Source: Candidatus Terraquivivens tengchongensis (lineage in GTDB: Archaea > Thermoproteota > Nitrososphaeria_A > Caldarchaeales > Wolframiiraptoraceae). Taken from it: DNA of 64,000 nucleotides. The notes under the pieces are model-generated. The model saw only the letters and a program-made list of their open reading frames with translations, made no database searches and was not told where the DNA came from. Both the position numbers and the translations under genes were made by a program. The stretch lies in contig JALNJZ010000002.1 of the NCBI GenBank assembly GCA_023261845.1, forward strand, positions 64,001-128,000, given 5' to 3'. Numbering within the stretch: the stretch's first letter is position 1; the number at the start of each line of letters is the position of its first letter. Positions 1 to 20,603 of the stretch are shown here, piece by piece.

Positions 1-3000
1 TTCAAGTAGTCCACCTCACCTCTGGCTGCCGCGTCGAGCAGTACTTGAACGCTTATTTCAAAGGCTGCTCTAGCAAGCACGCTCTCTTTTAGCTTAATTA
101 CACCGTGCCTACCTACCTGTCTCACATTACCGCTAACGGTCATCATATCTGCCAGGAGTATGAGGTGCCTAATGTCAACATCCAGTCCTTGCTCACGTAG
201 CACGTTCTTCGCCTCGTTTATTATCGCATTCCTTGCAGCCTCTATCCCTAGGACTTCTGCAATTTCATGTATGTCGTTCGTAATAACTCTAGTGGCATCA
301 ACACCAGGTACCTTCATCACTTCCCTTAGATTTGAGCCCTCCGTTAATATCACGTGCTCATCACCTTCTTGTACAACTATAGCTTTCGTTATTCTCTTAA
401 TTCCTTTGACCGTCATCTTGTCGTCCAGAAGTATTCTGTCTCTGAGCTTCTCGAGCGCTTGTACACTGTCTTCGGACGGTTTTAGTATGACTGTGTCCGT
501 GTCCTTTACTTCTGGCTTGTAAGCTTTTAAGGCATTCTTCACGTCACTTAACGTGATGCCCCTTTCATGCATTGCATCCGTATCTAACTTAATGGTTAAA
601 GCACCACGCTTATAGTTTATTACTACTTCAGAAACTATGTCCTTGAGAGCCGTATGTTGTATTTGGTTTGCGATTTTTTGTGCTTTATTCTTATCTTTTG
701 CGATGTCCTTTTGAAGGCATATCCTCATCGTGGGCGTGGATGGTACCTTACGTGCGTCAACTATCTCGATTAACCTTGGTAAGCCAAGCAATATACTCTG
801 CTCCCTAACGCCCGCAAAGTGGAATGTTCTGAGCGTAAGCTGAGTTCCTGGTTCACCTATTGATTGGGCTGTCACAACACCTACGGCGTCACCAGGCTCT
901 ACCCGAGAGTTCAGATAAACTTTGTATGCTTCTTCAAAAGATTTGTCAACCACAGGTTCTGAGGCTTTTACCTTTATGAGCTCGTTTACTAAATCTTCAA
1001 CAATTTTTTCAGGCATGAGCTTCTTGTACCGTTCAGACATTGATATGATATACTCACTAGAGGCAGGTTTGCCTGATGGCAAACTCTTCATGAACTTCTC
1101 TACAATCAGTACTGGGTTGACTGGTTGCCCATGCTCGCTCTTAGCTGGGTCGACACCATCTTCACCGTATTGGAACTGTATTATCCTCTTTTCATCCGTC
1201 GTCCTTACCGTACCGTCGTACTCAACATATAATGATTCTAGAGCGTTTATCAATCTGCGCTGCATATAACCGCTTTGCTGAGTTCTCACTGCCGTATCAA
1301 CTAGCCCATCCCTTCCACCCACCATGTGGAAGAAGAATTCCAATGGGTCTAGACCGCTCATGAATGAATTGTAGACGAAACCCCTAGCCCTAGGTGAGAG
1401 ATCTCCCGGCTTAAAGAACGTTAGAACCCTATCTGTGTATCCTCTCTTTATCCTTTCCCTTCTGACTGCTTGCTGACCGACGACCGCTATCATTTGGTCA
1501 ATGTTAAGCGACGTGCCCCTTGCTCCAGTCTTTATCATTATCAATGCATTATTTGATAGAGGTATGTGTTGCCTCACAATCTTGCCAGCCGTGTCCCTAG
1601 TCTTTGAAAGCAATGACAGGATGGCAGATTCGAATGATTGTTCGGGTGTCTCTCCGGGATAGACAGGAGCCTTACCCTTTTCGTAGTCCGTTTTAAGTTT
1701 AATGAATTCCTCATCCATCTTTACAAAAAGTTTGGATACTTCTCGGTAGACTTCAGCTGGCACTGTTAGGTCATCTATAGTGAACGTAAAGCCCCTGATA
1801 CGCAGGTATGTGTTAGCAAGCCTCACTACCCTGTCTAAAAATTCCCTAGCTACATCAGGGCCGTAATCTCTCACTAACCTGTGTATTATGTTGTTTGCTT
1901 TCTCTACACCTATGCCGCCCTTATCTATCACACCCTTTATGAGTTTGCCGTCTTGTATAACAACAGGTTCTTCGGGCATGAAGCTAGATCTGAATTTATG
2001 ACTAAAGTCCTTCGGAAGCAGCAGGCTAAATATCTGCTTGCCGCTCCACAATGGCTGCGGTTCTTTTACTGCTGGTTCTGGTAGCTTACCGTCATATCCT
2101 ATCGCTGAGAGCAGATAAGACGTCTCCTTTAGGTCGAGCAACGTATCATCTTTCGTTAGCAAGTACGTGGCCGTGAGGAAATCTCTAATGGCTCCGATTA
2201 TGGGCGTACCATGGCGCGGAGATATTATGTTGTTCTGTACTAGGAGCAGTATTCTGGCTTCGGTTTGAGCTTCTTCACTCTGTGGAACGTGCAGGTTCAT
2301 CTCGTCACCGTCAAAGTCTGCGTTATACGGCGTGCAGACCGCAAGATTAAGGCGGAATGTCTTGTAAGGAAGTACCTTTACTATGTGGGCCATTATTGAC
2401 ATCCGGTGGAGTGATGGCTGCCTGTTAAACAACACGATGTCTCCATCAATAAGGTGCCGCTCGACTATGTACCCAGGCTCTAGAGCGTTTGCCAACTCGT
2501 TCAAATCGTGCGCAAGTTTTAGCCTGATGGTCTTGCCATCTGGCCTGATTATGTACTTAGCGCCCGGATATTTGTCTGGACCGTTCCTTACGTACTCCCT
2601 TAATCTTTCAATGTTCCAGACCGTAACCTTTTCTGGTACGGTAAGCTGCATCGCTATCTCTATAGGAACGCCAACCTCGTTTATTCCTATGTTGGGGTCT
2701 GGAGATGTGACAGTCCTAGCCGAAAAATCAACCCTCTTGCCGGAAAGGTTTAACCTGAACCTACCTTCTTTGCCCTTCAGTCTCTGTGCTAGCGTCTTCA
2801 GTACACGGCCAGACCTGTGAACAGACGGGGATATTCCGACCGCTTCATTATTGATGTAAGTTGTTACATGATACTGAAGAAGGTCCGATAATTCCATTAT
2901 AACTGGAGAAGGTGATCCGGCAGCCATGTTTTCTCGAAGCCTTTGAGCAACCCTGAGTATGTCCACCAACTTGTGAGTCAGGTCGTCCTCTGACCTGAAA

Positions 3001-3683
3001 CCGGATTCAAGCGTAATGGATGGTCTTACATAAACAGGCGGCACAGGTAAGACCGTGAGTACCATCCACTCCGGTCTTGCACTCTTAGGGCCTATATCCA
3101 GCAGCACCAGGTCATCGTCGGGTATCCTCTCAAGCCTAGCCCTGACCACGTTAGCCGGAAGCCTTACAAGCTCTGACTCTGTCGCTTCTATGAAAGTTGT
3201 TGGTTTCTCTAACTCGATCTTTAGTTGCTTTTCACCGCAGTGTGGACACGTCTGCGTTGACGTGGCCTTCTGTATTACTTTGAAGTAAACATGCCTATAC
3301 GGTTTACCGGCTTGTTTCTCCCTTTCTAACTCTTCCTTGAAACTCTTTATCTCTTCGTCATTTAGAAGTATTCTACCACACGACCTGCATGTGGCTTTTA
3401 GAAGCGTATGTATGATCTTGGCAAATCCAACGTGTATAACGGGAACTGGTAATTCTATATGTCCGAAGTGTCCTGGGCATCCGAGGTAGGTATTACCGCA
3501 CGTCTTACAGCGTTGACCAGGTTCTAGAGTTCCTAGCCTTGGGTCCATCACGCCGGTCGGTATAGGAAGACCGTCGTCGCCGTACGTGTCAGGGTTTTGT
3601 ATCTCAGCTACGGACATCCTTCTAATTAAGTCGGGTGAAAGGATGCCAAACTTTATAGCAGCCACAGAACCCCTGTAGGACAT
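1..3683 (-). CDS. rpoA: DNA-directed RNA polymerase subunit A, unsplit A'+A'' (3' end outside window)
   Basis: Read manually: ATG at 3683 (MSYRGSVAAIKFGILSPD); catalytic NADFDGDEMN near 2295-2324 and the A''-type AQSIGEPGTQLTLRTFHFAG near 869 are in the same frame, and the A'/A'' junction reads through without a stop. Confidence 0.95.
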   Translation of the reverse strand, partial: MSYRGSVAAIKFGILSPDLIRRMSVAEIQNPDTYGDDGLPIPTGVMDPRLGTLEPGQRCKTCGNTYLGCPGHFGHIELPVPVIHVGFAKIIHTLLKATCRSCGRILLNDEEIKSFKEELEREKQAGKPYRHVYFKVIQKATSTQTCPHCGEKQLKIELEKPTTFIEATESELVRLPANVVRARLERIPDDDLVLLDIGPKSARPEWMVLTVLPVPPVYVRPSITLESGFRSEDDLTHKLVDILRVAQRLRENMAAGSPSPVIMELSDLLQYHVTTYINNEAVGISPSVHRSGRVLKTLAQRLKGKEGRFRLNLSGKRVDFSARTVTSPDPNIGINEVGVPIEIAMQLTVPEKVTVWNIERLREYVRNGPDKYPGAKYIIRPDGKTIRLKLAHDLNELANALEPGYIVERHLIDGDIVLFNRQPSLHRMSIMAHIVKVLPYKTFRLNLAVCTPYNADFDGDEMNLHVPQSEEAQTEARILLLVQNNIISPRHGTPIIGAIRDFLTATYLLTKDDTLLDLKETSYLLSAIGYDGKLPEPAVKEPQPLWSGKQIFSLLLPKDFSHKFRSSFMPEEPVVIQDGKLIKGVIDKGGIGVEKANNIIHRLVRDYGPDVAREFLDRVVRLANTYLRIRGFTFTIDDLTVPAEVYREVSKLFVKMDEEFIKLKTDYEKGKAPVYPGETPEQSFESAILSLLSKTRDTAGKIVRQHIPLSNNALIMIKTGARGTSLNIDQMIAVVGQQAVRRERIKRGYTDRVLTFFKPGDLSPRARGFVYNSFMSGLDPLEFFFHMVGGRDGLVDTAVRTQQSGYMQRRLINALESLYVEYDGTVRTTDEKRIIQFQYGEDGVDPAKSEHGQPVNPVLIVEKFMKSLPSGKPASSEYIISMSERYKKLMPEKIVEDLVNELIKVKASEPVVDKSFEEAYKVYLNSRVEPGDAVGVVTAQSIGEPGTQLTLRTFHFAGVREQSILLGLPRLIEIVDARKVPSTPTMRICLQKDIAKDKNKAQKIANQIQHTALKDIVSEVVINYKRGALTIKLDTDAMHERGITLSDVKNALKAYKPEVKDTDTVILKPSEDSVQALEKLRDRILLDDKMTVKGIKRITKAIVVQEGDEHVILTEGSNLREVMKVPGVDATRVITNDIHEIAEVLGIEAARNAIINEAKNVLREQGLDVDIRHLILLADMMTVSGNVRQVGRHGVIKLKESVLARAAFEISVQVLLDAAARGEVDYL

Positions 3684-3684
3684 G

Positions 3685-6600
3685 CTACACCAACTCCTCC
3701 AACTTTACTCTTGGATAAATACACATGCTTAGCAACTCGTTCAGTAGAAGGTAGAATGCGTACGACATGACGACGGGTTTTATGCTTGCCTCCTTTCCGC
3801 ACACTCTGCATACAAAACGCTCTTGTTTAAGGTCGTAGTAGGCAGGCAAGCCGCATTTTTCACAGAAGTACGCAGTATATTTATCGGACTGTTCGAGTAA
3901 CCTATCCAAGAGCAGATAAGCGGCACCATGCGCGATCAAGCAATCACGTTCCATCTCTCCAAACTTCAAACCACCACCTCTGGCCCTTCCTTCGGTCGGC
4001 TGCCGAGTCAGCAACTGTACCTGTCCACGTGCCCTTGCATGTATTTTATCCCTAACGAGGTGGTGTAACCTCTGATAGTAAACTACACCAATGAAGATTT
4101 CTGCTTCAAACTTCTTACCGGTTAGACCATCGTACATAACGGAAGTTCCCGAGCTTTTGAAGCCCAATGCCTCAAGCTCCGCCCTTAATTCCTCGATCTT
4201 TTTGCCAAGGAAGGGCGTTCCGTCAACAGGTTCAGCCTTTATGGCCGCAACCTTTCCCGCTATACTCTCGATAAGTTGACCGATGGTCATTCTTGAAGGG
4301 AATGCGTGCGGGTTTATTATTAGATCAGGCACTATGCCATCCTCAGTATATGGCATATCCTCTTGCGGGAATAGCATGCCGACGACACCCTTCTGTCCGT
4401 GCCTCGATGAAAACTTGTCACCTATCTCGACAAAGCACGTAGTCCTTACCCTTGCCTTTACAAGCTTGTTACCCTCATCCGTCCTAGTTATGAACATATT
4501 GTCAACGACACCACTCTCAGACTGCCTAACTACTTCGGATGCATCTCTCCACACCATTTCTCTTGCCGGCGCACGCGTGTACTCCTCCATGAATCTTGGC
4601 GGGCTCATGACACCGACTATCACCATATTTCCGCTCACGTCGGCTTCTACGTGAGCCAGACCATCAGCATCAAGTATTCTGTAGTACTGCTCGCCCTTGT
4701 AACCCCTTATGTTAGGTTCGGGTATCCCAAACTTATCCTTCTGGCCTCCGAGGTACTGTCTTGACTCTACCTCGTAGGTTCTATAGCTTAAGGAGAGACC
4801 TAATCCTCTCTCCACAGATGATTTGTTGAGTACGACAGCATCTTCCATGTTGTAGCCCTGAGCCGACAGTATCGCAACCACCATATTCTGACCTATCGGT
4901 CTGTTGTTAAGACCTATTAACTCAATAGATTTGGTCGTAACGAGAGGTTTCTGGGGATAAACTAGCAGGTGCATTCTGGAATCTGTTCTTATCTCATAAT
5001 TCGAGGCGAAGAAGCCTAAAGCCTGCTTTCCCATAGCACACTCGTAAACGTTTCTCGGGGACTGGTTATGCTCGGCATATGGGATTATCGATGCAACAAT
5101 ACCAAACATCAGGTAAGGGGATATCTCCATATGCGTATGCTCGGGCGTTACGGAATCTGGCGTTAAGGCAACAAACGCGTTCTCTTCTTCTTCCGCATCT
5201 AAGAATTCGATGATGCCCGTAGACACGAGGTCTCTGAACCTAGATATCCTATTCTTTATGGCCTCTACGTGATTGCGGTTTAATTTCGACACACCCTTCT
5301 CGACGATTATTAGCGGTCTTCTAACTCTACCCTCATCAGTGTTTATCCAGACCTCTTGCACGTGTTTGTAATTGTATAACGCAACGTTCACGTTATTATT
5401 TATCTCACCGTTCCTCCTCAGGTTTCTGAGTTCTGTGACAAGTTCCTGTCCGTTGGAATGGAAGCCCACCAATAAGCCATCAACAAATACCTTTGCAGGC
5501 AAGAACTTTTTCCGGTTTATGGCCTCGCTTAGGGGCATAACACCAAGGATGTAGAGTTTATCCAAAACTTCGCGCTTATTCATAGAGAATGAAAACTCTG
5601 CTGACAGTGCTAGATTCTTGACTAGGCCACAATTACTACCCTCAGGCGTCTCGGCAGGACATATCCTGCCCCAATGGGTTCCGTGAAGGTCTCTCGCTTC
5701 AAAATGCGGTTGGCTTCTACTCAAAGGTGACTGTACCCTTCTTAGATGGCTCAACGTTGCCAGGTAGTTAGTTCTGTTCAACAACTGAGTAACACCAACC
5801 CTTCCACCAGGCCAGTTCCCAGTCGCGAAGGCATGCTTGACAAAGTCGGCAACTATTCCTGGCCTGACGAACGTTGATATTGATGTCGGCTGTCTTATGG
5901 TTAACAGCTTTTCCAGCTGATACCTTATGTCCCTTATGAGCTTTAGGAATGCCATTCTGTACAATTCCATCAGCAGAGGCGTTGCGAGCTTCACGCGTTT
6001 ATTGGCATAATGGTCCTTATCGCTGGGCTTCCTAAGACCTAAGCTGGTCTCGAGTACCCTGCCTACCATATCGCATAAGAATATCGCCTTAAGATATCTC
6101 GATGCCTTATCCGTCCCGATATGCGGTAGTAGAACGTTATCTATCAGTTGCTCGGCCCTTTGTATCCTGTACTCTTCAGCATACCCGAACGCTATCTTAT
6201 TGCCTATGTACTTTAAGGCATCCTCAACAGTCTCTATCCCTTCTGCTTCCTTGAATGGAAGCTCCAGCAGTTCCTGGACTTCCTTAACTTGCGATACGAA
6301 GTTTACGATTTCTCTGTCGTTTGTCATGCCCAATGCTCTGAGAAGAATTATGATAGGTATGCCTTTGTAGATTCTTGAGAAGAAAACCCTTATCGGGCCA
6401 CCTTCTTTGTATGTAACTTCGACTTTAGCCTGCCTACCGAACGCAGAAGATAGCACGACGGCAGAGTATTGTGGTTTACCACCAACATCCTTTTCCGTTA
6501 CGAGTATCTTGTTGGGTGCTAAATCCTCTATTGCAACTATCACACGCTCCGAGCCGTTGATTATGAAATAACCTCCTGGGTCCATTGGGTCTTCTCCTAT

Positions 6601-17175: not shown

Positions 17176-17823
17176 ATGGAAAGGTCGGCGTACCTTTTGG
17201 ACCTTGAATCGCTTACGTATGAGGAAGCAGTCGAGCTTCAAGTGAGAATGGCATCCATGGTCTCAGAGTACGACTTCTCCAAGAAGTATGAGTTGTTCTG
17301 CGGAGTTGACGTAGCTTACTCCAACCAGCATGCCGTCGCAGTTGCCGTTATACAAAACGAGGATGGGAGCGTAGTTGAAGTCAGCAAGCGCAGGTATACA
17401 GTTCGACATGCTTATGTTCCGGGCCTTCTCTTCCTTCGTGAGGCGCCTCCCATGCTTAACGTAATCAAGAGCTTGAAGAACGATTTTGACGTGCTTCTCG
17501 TTGACGGTAACGGGAGGCTCCATCCTAGAAAGTTTGGTATAGCATGCTACGTTGGTATCATGTTGGACAAGCCGACGATAGGTGTAGCGAAAAGGCTCCT
17601 CTGTGGCCAAATTAAAACTGTGAATGGAAGGAGGGTCGTGGTGTTGAACGGCGACATAGTTGGTGAGGCGGTGGCGAAAGACGTGTACGTCAGTGTTGGC
17701 CATAAAATATCCTTGAGTACGGCAGTAGAAATTGTTAAGAAGCTAATGAGAGCCGGCCGGCTACCATCACCGATTCTCGTTGCACATAGAATGGCGAATG
17801 AAGAATTGGGGCGAAGGAAGTAA
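17176..17823 (+). CDS. nfi: Endonuclease V
   Basis: GVDVAY, YVPGLLFLRE, LVDGNGRLHPR, PTIGVAK, YVSVGH. Confidence 0.93.
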   Translation: MERSAYLLDLESLTYEEAVELQVRMASMVSEYDFSKKYELFCGVDVAYSNQHAVAVAVIQNEDGSVVEVSKRRYTVRHAYVPGLLFLREAPPMLNVIKSLKNDFDVLLVDGNGRLHPRKFGIACYVGIMLDKPTIGVAKRLLCGQIKTVNGRRVVVLNGDIVGEAVAKDVYVSVGHKISLSTAVEIVKKLMRAGRLPSPILVAHRMANEELGRRK

Positions 17824-17842: not shown

Positions 17843-20063
17843 TTATCCCTCTTCCACGAAATCGGATATCTTCGGTATCTCCGGCGGGAGGCCCTTCCTC
17901 TTCCTTATCTCCGCTATGACTTTGTCCCTTATTGACGCTGGAACGGGTTTCCAAGAAGAAAACTCAGTAGCCCAGAAGGCCTTGCCCATCGTCACGCTTC
18001 TCATGACCTCGCTAAGGTCGAAAGTCTCAGCTGCTGGAATCTCACCCTGTATTACTGTTATGTACTCGGCTTGTTTTATGTCCAGCACCTTTCCTCTCTT
18101 GGAGCTTATGACACTGGTTACGGCGCCCATAAATTCGGGCGATACCTTTGCCTCCAGCTTTAGTATGGGTTCAAGCAGCACGGGGTCGGCGCTCAGTATG
18201 CTGGCATAGAGGCTCCTCCATGTCGCCGGCGCTATCTGGGCATAGCCTCTGTGTACAGGGTCCTCATGTAACTCCACGTTAACTAAAACCGCCTTTACTC
18301 CCCTCATAGCTTCGCCGGCGAGCGGACCTTCCGACACTACCCTTTGGAAACCGCCTATTATCATCATCTTGGATTCATGAAGATATTGTGCCCCTTTCGT
18401 CATGTCAACGAGTATGTTGCCTCTGGGGTCGATGCACCAAACGTTCCTAGCTTCTTCTGCATCCCATCCATGGTCCCGCAGTATCTTCGCCACCTGTTTC
18501 CTGTCCATCTCGTCATAAAGCTCACCTGACCTTATCAGCTCTATTACTTCAGGCTCCAACGGTTCTGCCCTAATGTATATCCTATTGTGTTTGTTCGGCG
18601 ATTTACCTTCGAAGACCTTCCCCACTTTCTGGACAGCTTCTCTGTAGAGGATTATCGGTTTGCTTGGGATGACTTCCAGACCTGCCTTCGCTATCCATGT
18701 TAAAGCTATCTCCAGATGTAAAGTACCCATACCGCTTATCAGATACTCACCGGTCTCAGGTCTTACAGTTGTGACTAGCGTTGGGTCTTCTATGCTCAGT
18801 TTATTTAAGAAATCTACCAGCTTTGGTAAATCCTTGCTATGCTTTGGCTCTATCGATATTGTTACGACGGGTTCCGACACGTACTTTAACGTTTCGAACG
18901 GAACCATATCTACGGTTGCAAGCGTATCACCCGCCCTTGCATTTTCTACACCTAAGAGTGCAGGTATGTTACCAGCCGGTAGGCTACCGACTATCTCCCT
19001 TGCGGGACCCATGTATACGGCAACTTGTTGAACTCTTTCTGTTATATTCCTTCCGACCAGCAACAAAGTATTGCCATCACTCACGATACCGCTGAATAGC
19101 CTACCTGTTACCACGACACCGGCTTGTGGATCAACCTTTACGTCAGTTACTGCCATAACCGTAGGACCGTTCTCGTCGCATTCCATCATGGCCCTGCCGA
19201 CGTCGCTATCTAGCGGCCCCTTCCATATCTTCGGTATTCTGTACTTTTGAGCCACGTGCGGAGGCGGATGGTGGTTTATTACCATCTCGAGAATCGCTTC
19301 ATGTAACGGTGCATTTTCTCTGAGCCACTCTATATCGCCCTTCGCAAACGCATTAATTACATCGCTGAACTTTATGCCCTTCTTCTGGGCTTGTTGTAGA
19401 GTGAATCCCCACCTGTCTTTTGCGCTACCTATCGCCACGCTGCCGGCGGCTATACTAACCTTCCACTTATCCCTAAACTCTGGTTCGGCATACATTTCTA
19501 TCAGTCTGTTGATGTCCATTATTATCCTACCCAGCGTCTCCTGGATTCTTTCAGGGGTCAGCTTCAGCTCCTTAACCAGCCTATCGATTTTGTTTATGTA
19601 GAGAACCGGCTTAACCCTTTCTTGCACTGCCTGCCTTATCACGGTCTCCGTCTGCGTCATGACACCCTCAACTGCATCCACCACGACCACCGCGCCGTCT
19701 ATCGCTCTCAGAGCCCTCGTGACCCTTCCAGAGAAGTCAACATGTCCAGGCGTGTCTATGAGATTTATTATGTAAGGCTTTGAGTCCATCTCATAATATA
19801 GGCTGATGTTAGCTGCCTTGATCGTCATCTGACGTTGTTGTTCTTCTTCGAGATAGTCTAAGGCCAATGCCTTCCCAGCTAAAGATGGTGAGAGTAACCC
19901 TGCTGCAGCTAGAAGACTGTCCGTAGTTGTTGTCTTTCCGTGGTCTACTTACCCCCTAAGGATGTTACGGTCCTTAGGTATGGGCTATGATGCCGACGTT
20001 CCTTATACTATCTTTATTTTTCAGAATGTCTACGACTTCGCTGATCTTCTTCACCCTAGGCAT
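17843..20063 (-). CDS. fusA: Translation elongation factor 2, two exons (20063-19980 and 19948-17843), 729 aa after splicing
   Basis: Exon 1 MPRVKKISEVVDILKNKDSIRNVGIIAH joins exon 2 VDHGKTTTTDSLL...; DTPGHVDF, NKID and diphthamide loop HEDPVHRG present; ORF track shows only the truncated 674 aa. Confidence 0.95.
19949..19979 (-). other. Putative 31-nt bulge-helix-bulge intron in EF-2 mRNA
   Basis: Insert ACCTAAGGACCGTAACATCCTTAGGGGGTAA; 8-bp stem CCTAAGGA/TCCTTAGG; central helix GCCC/GGGU; 3-nt bulges AUA and AAG; cutting after bulge nt 2 restores frame and P-loop. Confidence 0.88.
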
Positions 20064-20297
20064 TTTCCTTCAACACCTGAGGACTCGTTTAAAATACTGC
20101 CATATATAGTTGCCACCAGCGGACTTTTGTCTTGGAAAGCCATTGTCAGGCTTGTATCAAGCTTTTTAACGGTCTCATAGCTCGTATAATGCCTTATTTT
20201 CAACATTTACTCTAACTCTAAAAGTCAAGGATGCTTTTTAGTTATAAAACTTACTTGCGGTTTAGTTGGAGGGCGCTGAGGGGCGTAAGTGTCGTCT

Positions 20298-20603
20298 TTA
20301 AGCACTCTTTCCAAGTTTTTCCATTACGTCGTTGTATATTTCAGTCCTTGTTCTTCCTTCCGTCGGTACACCTAGCTTCTTCGCCATATCCATAAGCATA
20401 TCAACGTCTTTCTTCAATTCTTGAACGTCTATAGTTGATGCGGCCTGTTCCTTAATTTCCTCTGCCTCTTTCATAGCCTTCTGAAACTCTTTCTTAGCCT
20501 TACCCAACGATCTCGCCAACTCAGGTATCTTGCTCGGACCCCATATGAGGAATATTACTACAAGTATTATAATGATTATCCACTCGATGCCAACTATCGC
20601 CAT
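20298..20603 (-). CDS. tatA: Twin-arginine translocase TatA/E subunit
   Basis: N-terminal TM helix then WGPSKIPELARSLGKAKKEF. Confidence 0.9.
   Translation of the reverse strand: MAIVGIEWIIIIILVVIFLIWGPSKIPELARSLGKAKKEFQKAMKEAEEIKEQAASTIDVQELKKDVDMLMDMAKKLGVPTEGRTRTEIYNDVMEKLGKSA

Follow-up and report, generated by a model that had tools for sequence, protein, structure and literature searches.

A predicted bulge-helix-bulge intron in the P-loop codons of the elongation factor 2 gene of Candidatus Terraquivivens tengchongensis and related archaea

The elongation factor 2 (EF-2; aEF-2 in archaea) gene of Candidatus Terraquivivens tengchongensis (Caldarchaeales, Wolframiiraptoraceae) is interrupted, within the codons of its GTPase P-loop, by 31 nucleotides (nt) that we regard as a genuine transfer RNA (tRNA)-type bulge-helix-bulge (BHB) intron in the precursor messenger RNA (pre-mRNA) of a single gene, spliced via the endonuclease EndA and the ligase RtcB (probability, about 0.88). 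The gene lies in a 64,000-nt stretch of contig JALNJZ010000002.1, called the window here, and positions refer to this window unless another contig is named. The BHB reading is based on the sequence and geometry of the insert, its conservation and covariation among relatives, purifying selection on the exons, the single copy of the gene, the presence of the enzyme genes, and a cbf5 intron in the same genome; from these we infer EndA cleavage, RtcB ligation, and any regulatory effect. The intron itself is of a known kind, for which EF-2 is a new host, and the EF-2 mRNA is very probably spliced by tRNA-splicing enzymes.

The interrupted EF-2 gene and the fold of its insert

On the minus strand, the gene reads ...GGC ATC ATA GCC CAT / A CCTAAGGA CCGTAACA TCCTTAGG GGGT AA / GTA GAC CAC GGA AAG ACA..., with the 31-nt insert (19979 down to 19949, between the slashes) separating the His codon of the AHVDHGKT P-loop from the Val codon. 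The upstream open reading frame (ORF; 19974-20063, minus strand) encodes 29 amino acids (aa) ending in IIAHT*, and an in-frame TAA lies inside the insert at 19976-19974. From 19948 to 17843 on the minus strand, the frame is open for 701 aa, begins with VDHGKT, and is that of an aEF-2, scoring 828.6 bits against NCBIfam TIGR00490 (cut-off, 738.45 bits) over profile positions 28-720 of 720. Since this match begins at position 28, it lacks no more than the first ~27 profile positions, the part that exon 1 would contribute. The joined product is an EF-2 of 28 + 701 = 729 aa, with NVGIIAHVDHGK as the predicted junction-spanning peptide of the spliced form. The parts of the gene are as follows.

19980..20063, minus strand: EF-2 exon 1, ATG to CAT, 28 codons, MPRVKK...NVGIIAH
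19949..19979, minus strand: predicted 31-nt BHB intron, from sequence, folding, and same-site comparison
Intron, first part: third nucleotide of bulge 1 (A19979); inner stem (19978-19971 with 19962-19955); 8-nt loop (19970-19963)
Intron, second part: 3' strand of the central helix (GGGT, 19954-19951); first two nucleotides of bulge 2 (AA, 19950-19949)
17843..19948, minus strand: EF-2 exon 2, GTA GAC CAC GGA AAG... to the stop, 701 codons plus stop

The central helix (H) joins G19985-C19982 with G19954-T19951 in four pairs, one G-U and three C-G; its 5' strand (GCCC, 19985-19982) and the following bulge nucleotides AT (19981-19980) are the last 6 nt of exon 1. On opposite strands around it lie two 3-nt bulges, ATA (A19981 T19980 A19979) and AAG (A19950 A19949 G19948). 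The inner stem (h') consists of 8 Watson-Crick pairs closing an 8-nt loop, and the outer exon-exon helix (h) of A19986-T19947 and T19987-A19946, followed by two further pairs past a bulged A. By an established rule, EndA cleaves each bulge 3' of its second nucleotide; by frame arithmetic, cuts at AU/A and AA/G yield CAT/GTA and give back AHVDHGKT. In tRNA introns at position 37/38, a 4-base-pair (bp) helix joins the 5' exon to the 3' end of the intron, with bulges 3' of the helix strands, and the layout of the EF-2 insert appears to be the same. With two 3-nt bulges around a 4-bp helix, the insert conforms to the BHB pattern, and where the accessible part of PMC7714728 defines an hBHBh' as having at least 2 Watson-Crick pairs in each of h (exon side) and h' (intron side), the EF-2 insert has 8 in h' and 2 contiguous ones in h.

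A preliminary description of this stretch, made from the DNA letters, had given the same coordinates, 29-aa peptide, and 729-aa total, all of which agree with the sequence and its ORFs. Its proposed BHB structure, cut arithmetic, and restored AHVDHGKT motif are also correct, and are now backed by covariation, by conserved stems with free loops, and by selection on the exons. The centroid fold computed with ViennaRNA includes both H and the inner stem, with ensemble pair probabilities of 0.55-0.58 and 0.96-1.0, respectively.

Recurrence of the insert in related archaea

EF-2 matches were obtained in 73 of the 76 Caldarchaeales genomes searched, and in 10 of these the gene is broken exactly at the His/Val point: 6 of 7 Terraquivivens genomes (G000-G005, where G000 is that of the window), all 3 of a genus designated g7, and the one genome of genus g10. 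These ten broken loci and thirty others were examined at the sequence level. AHVDHGKT is contiguous in the 30 other related loci, and in the rest of the Caldarchaeales genomes the EF-2 frame is open over at least 729 aa or the match is only partial. As expected of a cbf5-type intron, the coding frame is interrupted by the insert and is uninterrupted at this point in relatives without it. A same-site insert is also present in a Bathyarchaeia genome (L094) and in metagenome contigs (L172-L176, L201, and L203). Among 150 loci examined, 27 were broken, and the canonical cut rule restores ...IRN[IV]GIIAHVDHGKT in 26 of them; the 27th requires two introns.

Comparison of 22 loci yielded 15 distinct same-site inserts of 30-46 nt. 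Their central-helix pairs are standard in 60 of 60 instances, and the third pair is C-G in 10 inserts and G-C in 5, following a change of the Ala codon from GCC to GCG that is matched by GGGT to GCGT in the intron; one Bathyarchaeia insert carries GGGC. Positions 1-3 of the inner stem show standard pairs in 45 of 45 instances, each position using 2-5 pair types, and the stems of different lineages are unrelated in sequence. An in-frame stop follows the 5' splice site within 1-6 codons in every one of the 15, even in the 9 with lengths divisible by 3. Each of the six Terraquivivens species has its own loop, distinct in both sequence and length, and the stems, H, and bulges are invariant. Invariant stems, H, and bulges together with free loops and compensatory changes point to selection on RNA structure rather than decay. 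The preliminary description had called for an alignment of EF-2 across relatives, and what emerges from it is a patchy pattern of presence and absence accompanied by compensatory changes in the helix.

The arms of the inner stem are often interrupted palindromes themselves (CCTAAGG/CCTTAGG, GCTTAGC/GCTAAGC, GCGCTTAGCGC, and CTTAAG), as seen in the window (19971-19978 and 19955-19962) and at loci L033-L035, L172, L174, L102, and L108.

The exons bear the marks of a working gene. In all 15 pairs of the six Terraquivivens species, the ratio of nonsynonymous to synonymous substitution rates (dN/dS) of exon 2 is 0.012-0.032 at dS of 0.34-1.22. Exon 1 differs by 0-4 amino acids and, in all six, remains in frame as far as the splice site; both exons are under strong purifying selection. 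The locus is the single one for EF-2 in a 1.22-Mb genome of 14 contigs estimated to be 99.42% complete. Two further weak EF-2 matches in this genome belong to different GTPases, encoded by open frames of 438 and 602 aa. In a survey of the phylum, five of the genomes with two EF-2 matches were checked and held paralogous full-length copies or contig breaks, with no large P-loop introns.

These data bear directly on whether the insert could be an assembly or sequencing artefact, or the gene a decaying pseudogene. The assembly is of the metagenome type, in 14 contigs, and the sequencing runs that contain the stretch are hot-spring metagenomes. In DNA runs X1 and X5, one contig each covers all 1001 nt of a stretch that includes the insert, and these contigs are near-identical to the window and possibly its own source; a contig of X15 spans 19725-20006, leaving just 27 nt beyond the insert on one side. 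However, six species-level genomes, as well as JGI contigs from further samples, have inserts with species-specific loops at the same site. L129 carries the insert of G002, L130 and L196 carry that of G003, and the insert of L128 is identical to the window's, this contig being a possible source of the window. No intron-less or cDNA-like Terraquivivens EF-2 was found among the JGI contigs, where 4 of 4 Terraquivivens-like contigs have the insert. Its occurrence in separate DNA runs, JGI contigs, and six species-level genomes rules out an assembly artefact. A pseudogene is opposed by the absence of any other EF-2 locus in so complete a genome, by the low dN/dS at dS of up to 1.2, and by helices maintained through covariation. 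The chance that either account is right is vanishingly small, as the preliminary description had anticipated when it judged error or pseudogene unlikely.

Alternatively, the gene may be truly split, with the 29-aa peptide cooperating with an N-terminally truncated EF-2, or with the truncated form sufficing alone. Both pieces are indeed open frames, the second including a TTG-started ORF of 674 aa at 17843-19867. Yet exon 2 begins without a start codon, its first candidate (TTG at 19867) would delete the P-loop, and the break itself falls inside the GTP-binding loop. A split gene would also give the BHB covariation no reason, and does not fit an exon 1 that is in frame and conserved to the splice site in six species. 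We therefore consider it extremely unlikely.

Ribosomes might instead hop or shift through the insert by translational bypass or recoding, with no RNA splicing. Programmed bypass in phage T4 gene 60 uses matching take-off and landing codons. In the window, a stop stands one codon after the break within a stable hairpin, which may bear a loose likeness to the gene 60 take-off site. No matching take-off/landing pair is present, however, since neither CAU nor ACC before the gap has an in-frame twin before GUA GAC. At 30-46 nt, the inserts represent every length phase and none is free of stops, so that a simple frameshift cannot work, and their conserved parts are a 4-bp helix, two 3-nt bulges, and flanking stems with compensatory changes, none of which bypass needs. 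Bypass is accordingly very unlikely.

A predicted route to EF-2 mRNA splicing

The intron reading suggests the following course of events. The EF-2 transcript would fold so that GCCC at the end of exon 1 pairs with GGGU at the 3' end of the intron, with the 8-bp intron hairpin on one side, the short exon-exon helix on the other, and the two 3-nt bulges exposed. A heteromeric EndA, made of a catalytic alpha and a beta subunit, would cut at AU/A and AA/G. RtcB would then ligate ...GCC CAU to GUA GAC..., restoring AHVDHGKT and the 729-aa EF-2, and would probably circularize the 31-nt intron. Unspliced mRNA would yield the 29-aa peptide only.

The genome is equipped for such a pathway. It encodes an EndA alpha (189 aa) and an EndA beta (183 aa), each with both an N-terminal and a catalytic-type domain (PF01974 and PF02778), and the enzyme is thus predicted to be of the two-subunit form. 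RtcB is encoded as well (578.8 bits), and aragorn identified 35 tRNAs, 12 of them with introns.

A further split protein gene was observed in this genome outside the window (locus L127; contig C8:80177-81147, plus strand), where cbf5 is divided by a 20-nt BHB insert (CCCT agg AGGCTTAAAGCCT GGGG aca) whose outer helix spans 9 bp. The match to profile TIGR00425 is spread over two cbf5 frames 20 nt apart, one covering positions 6-70 and the other 71-322, and the BHB motif is exactly there. The organism therefore has, in cbf5, the only type of archaeal mRNA intron for which there is experimental confirmation from elsewhere.

Scans of the whole genome for BHB motifs whose removal restores a frame gave no enrichment, either with a loose search (3837 of 67173 motif matches passing, versus 3496 at random positions) or with a strict mini-intron search (23 of 637 passing, versus 19.85 expected). 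Four other candidates from the scans were inspected and rejected as adjacent separate genes. Because the strict filter overlooked the genuine cbf5 intron, the scan is no proof that introns of this kind are confined to EF-2 and cbf5. The best-scoring motifs were two near-identical BHB-like copies on the minus strand, near 61646 of contig C5 and near 89876 of contig C6, with an 11-bp outer helix, the form CATG ctg GAAAAAATTTTC [CT]GTG gtg, and L = 19.

Several observations weigh against the splicing model. The exon-exon helix is weak: it has just 2 uninterrupted pairs and forms with an ensemble probability of only 0.024, and in strict register the g7/g10-type inserts have an exon-exon helix of 1 pair, which makes those inserts relaxed BHBs. 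The fold is not exceptional in stability (z = -1.80; 8 of 200 shuffles were equally stable), and the full BHB structure, at -13.8 kcal/mol, lies above the minimum free energy structure at -17.5. The cut positions are drawn from general knowledge of EndA rather than from this organism's enzyme. Finally, no spliced EF-2 RNA was found: X16, the sole RNA library containing part of the 1001-nt stretch (as contigs, not reads), has no joint across 19948/19980 among its contigs. Its record 13, a 435-nt contig of depth 7, agrees with 19979-20384 at all but one position, and another 29 letters lie outside the aligned part; the match thus extends one base past the predicted exon end at 19980, and the aligned part includes none of exon 2. 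No X16 contig aligned to 19842-19977. Folding energy alone is insufficient to establish the intron; the case rests on recurrence at one codon boundary with compensatory changes. The departure of the X16 contig at the 5' splice site is compatible with cleavage nearby, but is unexplained rather than support.

The same contig, which stops matching at the 5' splice site with no visible exon-2 continuation, could be taken to indicate that EndA cleavage is mainly a regulatory or decay switch, in which most transcripts stay unligated or splicing efficiency sets the EF-2 level. A precedent is found in Haloferax, where the BHB in the 5' untranslated region (UTR) of HVO_1309 affects expression, according to the accessible portion of PMC7714728. 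One low-depth contig, however, says nothing on efficiency, and with a lone gene for an essential factor, ligation into a working message must predominate. A predominantly regulatory role is therefore unlikely, although cleavage may have a partly regulatory one, and splicing of the EF-2 pre-mRNA into a translatable message is the reading that we retain.

A second intron site, mobility, and known systems

EF-2 holds a second recurrent BHB site six codons upstream of the first, after the first base of the Asn codon in I-R-N-I-G. It was seen at L036/L093 (G035), at L176, and in the Bathyarchaeia loci L102, L108, L178, L179, L182, and L185-L189. The inserts there are 26-43 nt long, with a helix T[CT]CG / CG[GA]A showing a compensatory C-G to T-A change and with bulges aaa and a[ag]a/aca/ata. 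One BHB cut canonically at this site restores ...IRNIGIIAHVDHGKT in 10 loci, and both introns, at the P-loop site and at the upstream site, are present in G035 and L176. In further Bathyarchaeia (for example, L095, L097, L100, L103, L109-L111, and L115), the frame is apparently shifted at the second site.

The distribution of the P-loop insert is patchy, covering one of five genera in the family of Terraquivivens and the whole of another family. It is possible, and we put it forward tentatively, that ORF-less BHB mini-introns are present or recent site-specific mobile elements that repeatedly colonized two fixed points at the 5' end of EF-2, namely, the P-loop His/Val boundary and the Arg-Asn site 6 codons upstream. 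Terraquivivens, a second Caldarchaeales family, and Bathyarchaeia might then be separately colonized lineages, and the unrelated stems, the patchiness, a Calditenuis intein, and a mosaic gene in T. tikiterensis might be traces of gain and loss by homing or recombination at the DNA level. Intron gain and loss through recombination is plausible. The preliminary description had suggested that the insert may be a remnant of a mobile intron. This idea has only circumstantial support, in the same-site inserts of separate lineages and in the intein in the P-loop of Calditenuis G060; against it stand the lack of a homing endonuclease gene at or beside the locus and of an exon co-conversion signal.

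No homing endonuclease gene was found in the 31-nt intron, which has no ORF, or adjoining EF-2, whose neighbors are endonuclease V, TatA, and ribosomal protein S13.

17176..17823, plus strand: endonuclease V (Pfam PF04493), downstream neighbor, a repair enzyme and not a homing endonuclease
20298..20603, minus strand: TatA/B/E family protein (PF02416, by Pfam match), upstream neighbor

PF14528 (LAGLIDADG_3), the sole endonuclease family searched genome-wide, had 0 matches in G000, G001, and G035. The g7 genomes G026 and G032 have 8-9 such matches each, none of them adjoining EF-2, and several lie in open frames of 281-360 aa that are apparently free-standing. An ungapped comparison of exon flanks gave no signal of exon co-conversion between Terraquivivens and g7. 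In exon 1, identity to G026 was 72-75% for G000/G005 versus 62-75% for intron-less genera, and in the first 60 nt of exon 2 it was 65-73% versus 60-75%.

Two EF-2 genes of other composition were observed in the order. In Calditenuis G060 (L126, C23:8000-13300), the ORF at 514-4545 on the minus strand is an EF-2 containing an intein of ~614 aa with Intein_splicing and LAGLIDADG_3 matches. It is inserted in the same P-loop, at DHGK/C...HN/TTTTD, 15 nt downstream of the intron site. Candidatus Terraquivivens tikiterensis (G006; L008, 1-1800) has the only intron-less Terraquivivens EF-2, and the gene is a mosaic in which exon 1 and ~300 nt following the P-loop are closest to a Pelearchaeum-type gene, at 78-86% identity versus 65-71% to Terraquivivens, and the rest is Terraquivivens-like. 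A fragment of an IS240-type DDE transposase and a small ORF lie upstream in place of TatA/S13. The mosaic could reflect recombination or a chimeric contig.

A BHB intron in cbf5 pre-mRNA was reportedly described by Watanabe in 2002 and by Yoshinari in 2006. Such introns are described in Desulfurococcales and Sulfolobales (Yokobori 2009, PMC2738675), and the accessible part of that paper lists 0 for Cenarchaeum, Nitrosopumilus, Korarchaeum, and Thermoproteales. It also states that splicing had been confirmed for no protein gene but cbf5, with introns in other protein genes just predicted, for which it cites a rudivirus paper and a Sulfolobus book chapter; likewise, the portion of PMC7714728 at hand gives the cbf5 mRNA intron as the only example reported. 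The preliminary description knew of no BHB intron in EF-2, and none was found in the literature searched, which yielded just the cbf5 work and the Haloferax EndA study, with subscription journals and supplementary files outside that search. Combining 'bulge-helix-bulge' with 'elongation factor 2' returned a single match (PMC3082918), the accessible content of which is unrelated, and a paper on EF-2 evolution (PMC6143161) has 'intron' only in a reference title and describes none in EF-2.

EF-2 is needed in every round of translation; if its mRNA has to be processed by EndA and RtcB, a core part of the translation machinery of these archaea depends on the tRNA-splicing pathway, and the splicing step must compete with ribosome loading on the nascent mRNA. 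Splicing might also couple elongation capacity to tRNA/rRNA processing, as the preliminary description proposed. EF-2 joins cbf5 as a second, and essential, host gene with natural variants, 15 at the P-loop site and at least 10 loci at the second site, a set that allows the recognition, gain, and loss of BHB introns to be studied. Since EF-2 is a common phylogenetic marker, it also matters that gene callers will truncate or split it in these genomes.

Compared with the cbf5 intron, the EF-2 intron is likewise a short ORF-less BHB in a protein gene, in a host with a predicted two-subunit EndA; its removal restores the frame, and it is patchy among relatives. It differs in its host gene, in its site within a GTPase P-loop, in that splicing here is predicted from sequence, and in its lineage, Caldarchaeales, which is unsampled in the accessible part of PMC2738675. 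With archaeal tRNA introns it shares the 4-bp helix, the two opposite 3-nt bulges, the flanking helices, the pairing of the 5' exon with the 3' end of the intron, and, presumably, the enzymes EndA and RtcB, but it lies in an mRNA without a tRNA body and its exon-exon helix is 2 bp only. The Haloferax volcanii HVO_1309 element is, like it, a BHB in an mRNA and is an EndA substrate; according to the available part of PMC7714728, that element, in contrast, is in the 5' UTR and leaves the frame uninterrupted; it was verified in vitro. Finally, the EF-2 intron resembles inteins and homing-endonuclease introns in occupying an invariant nucleotide-binding motif, but it has no ORF, and whereas an intein is removed at the protein level, this intron would be removed at the RNA level.

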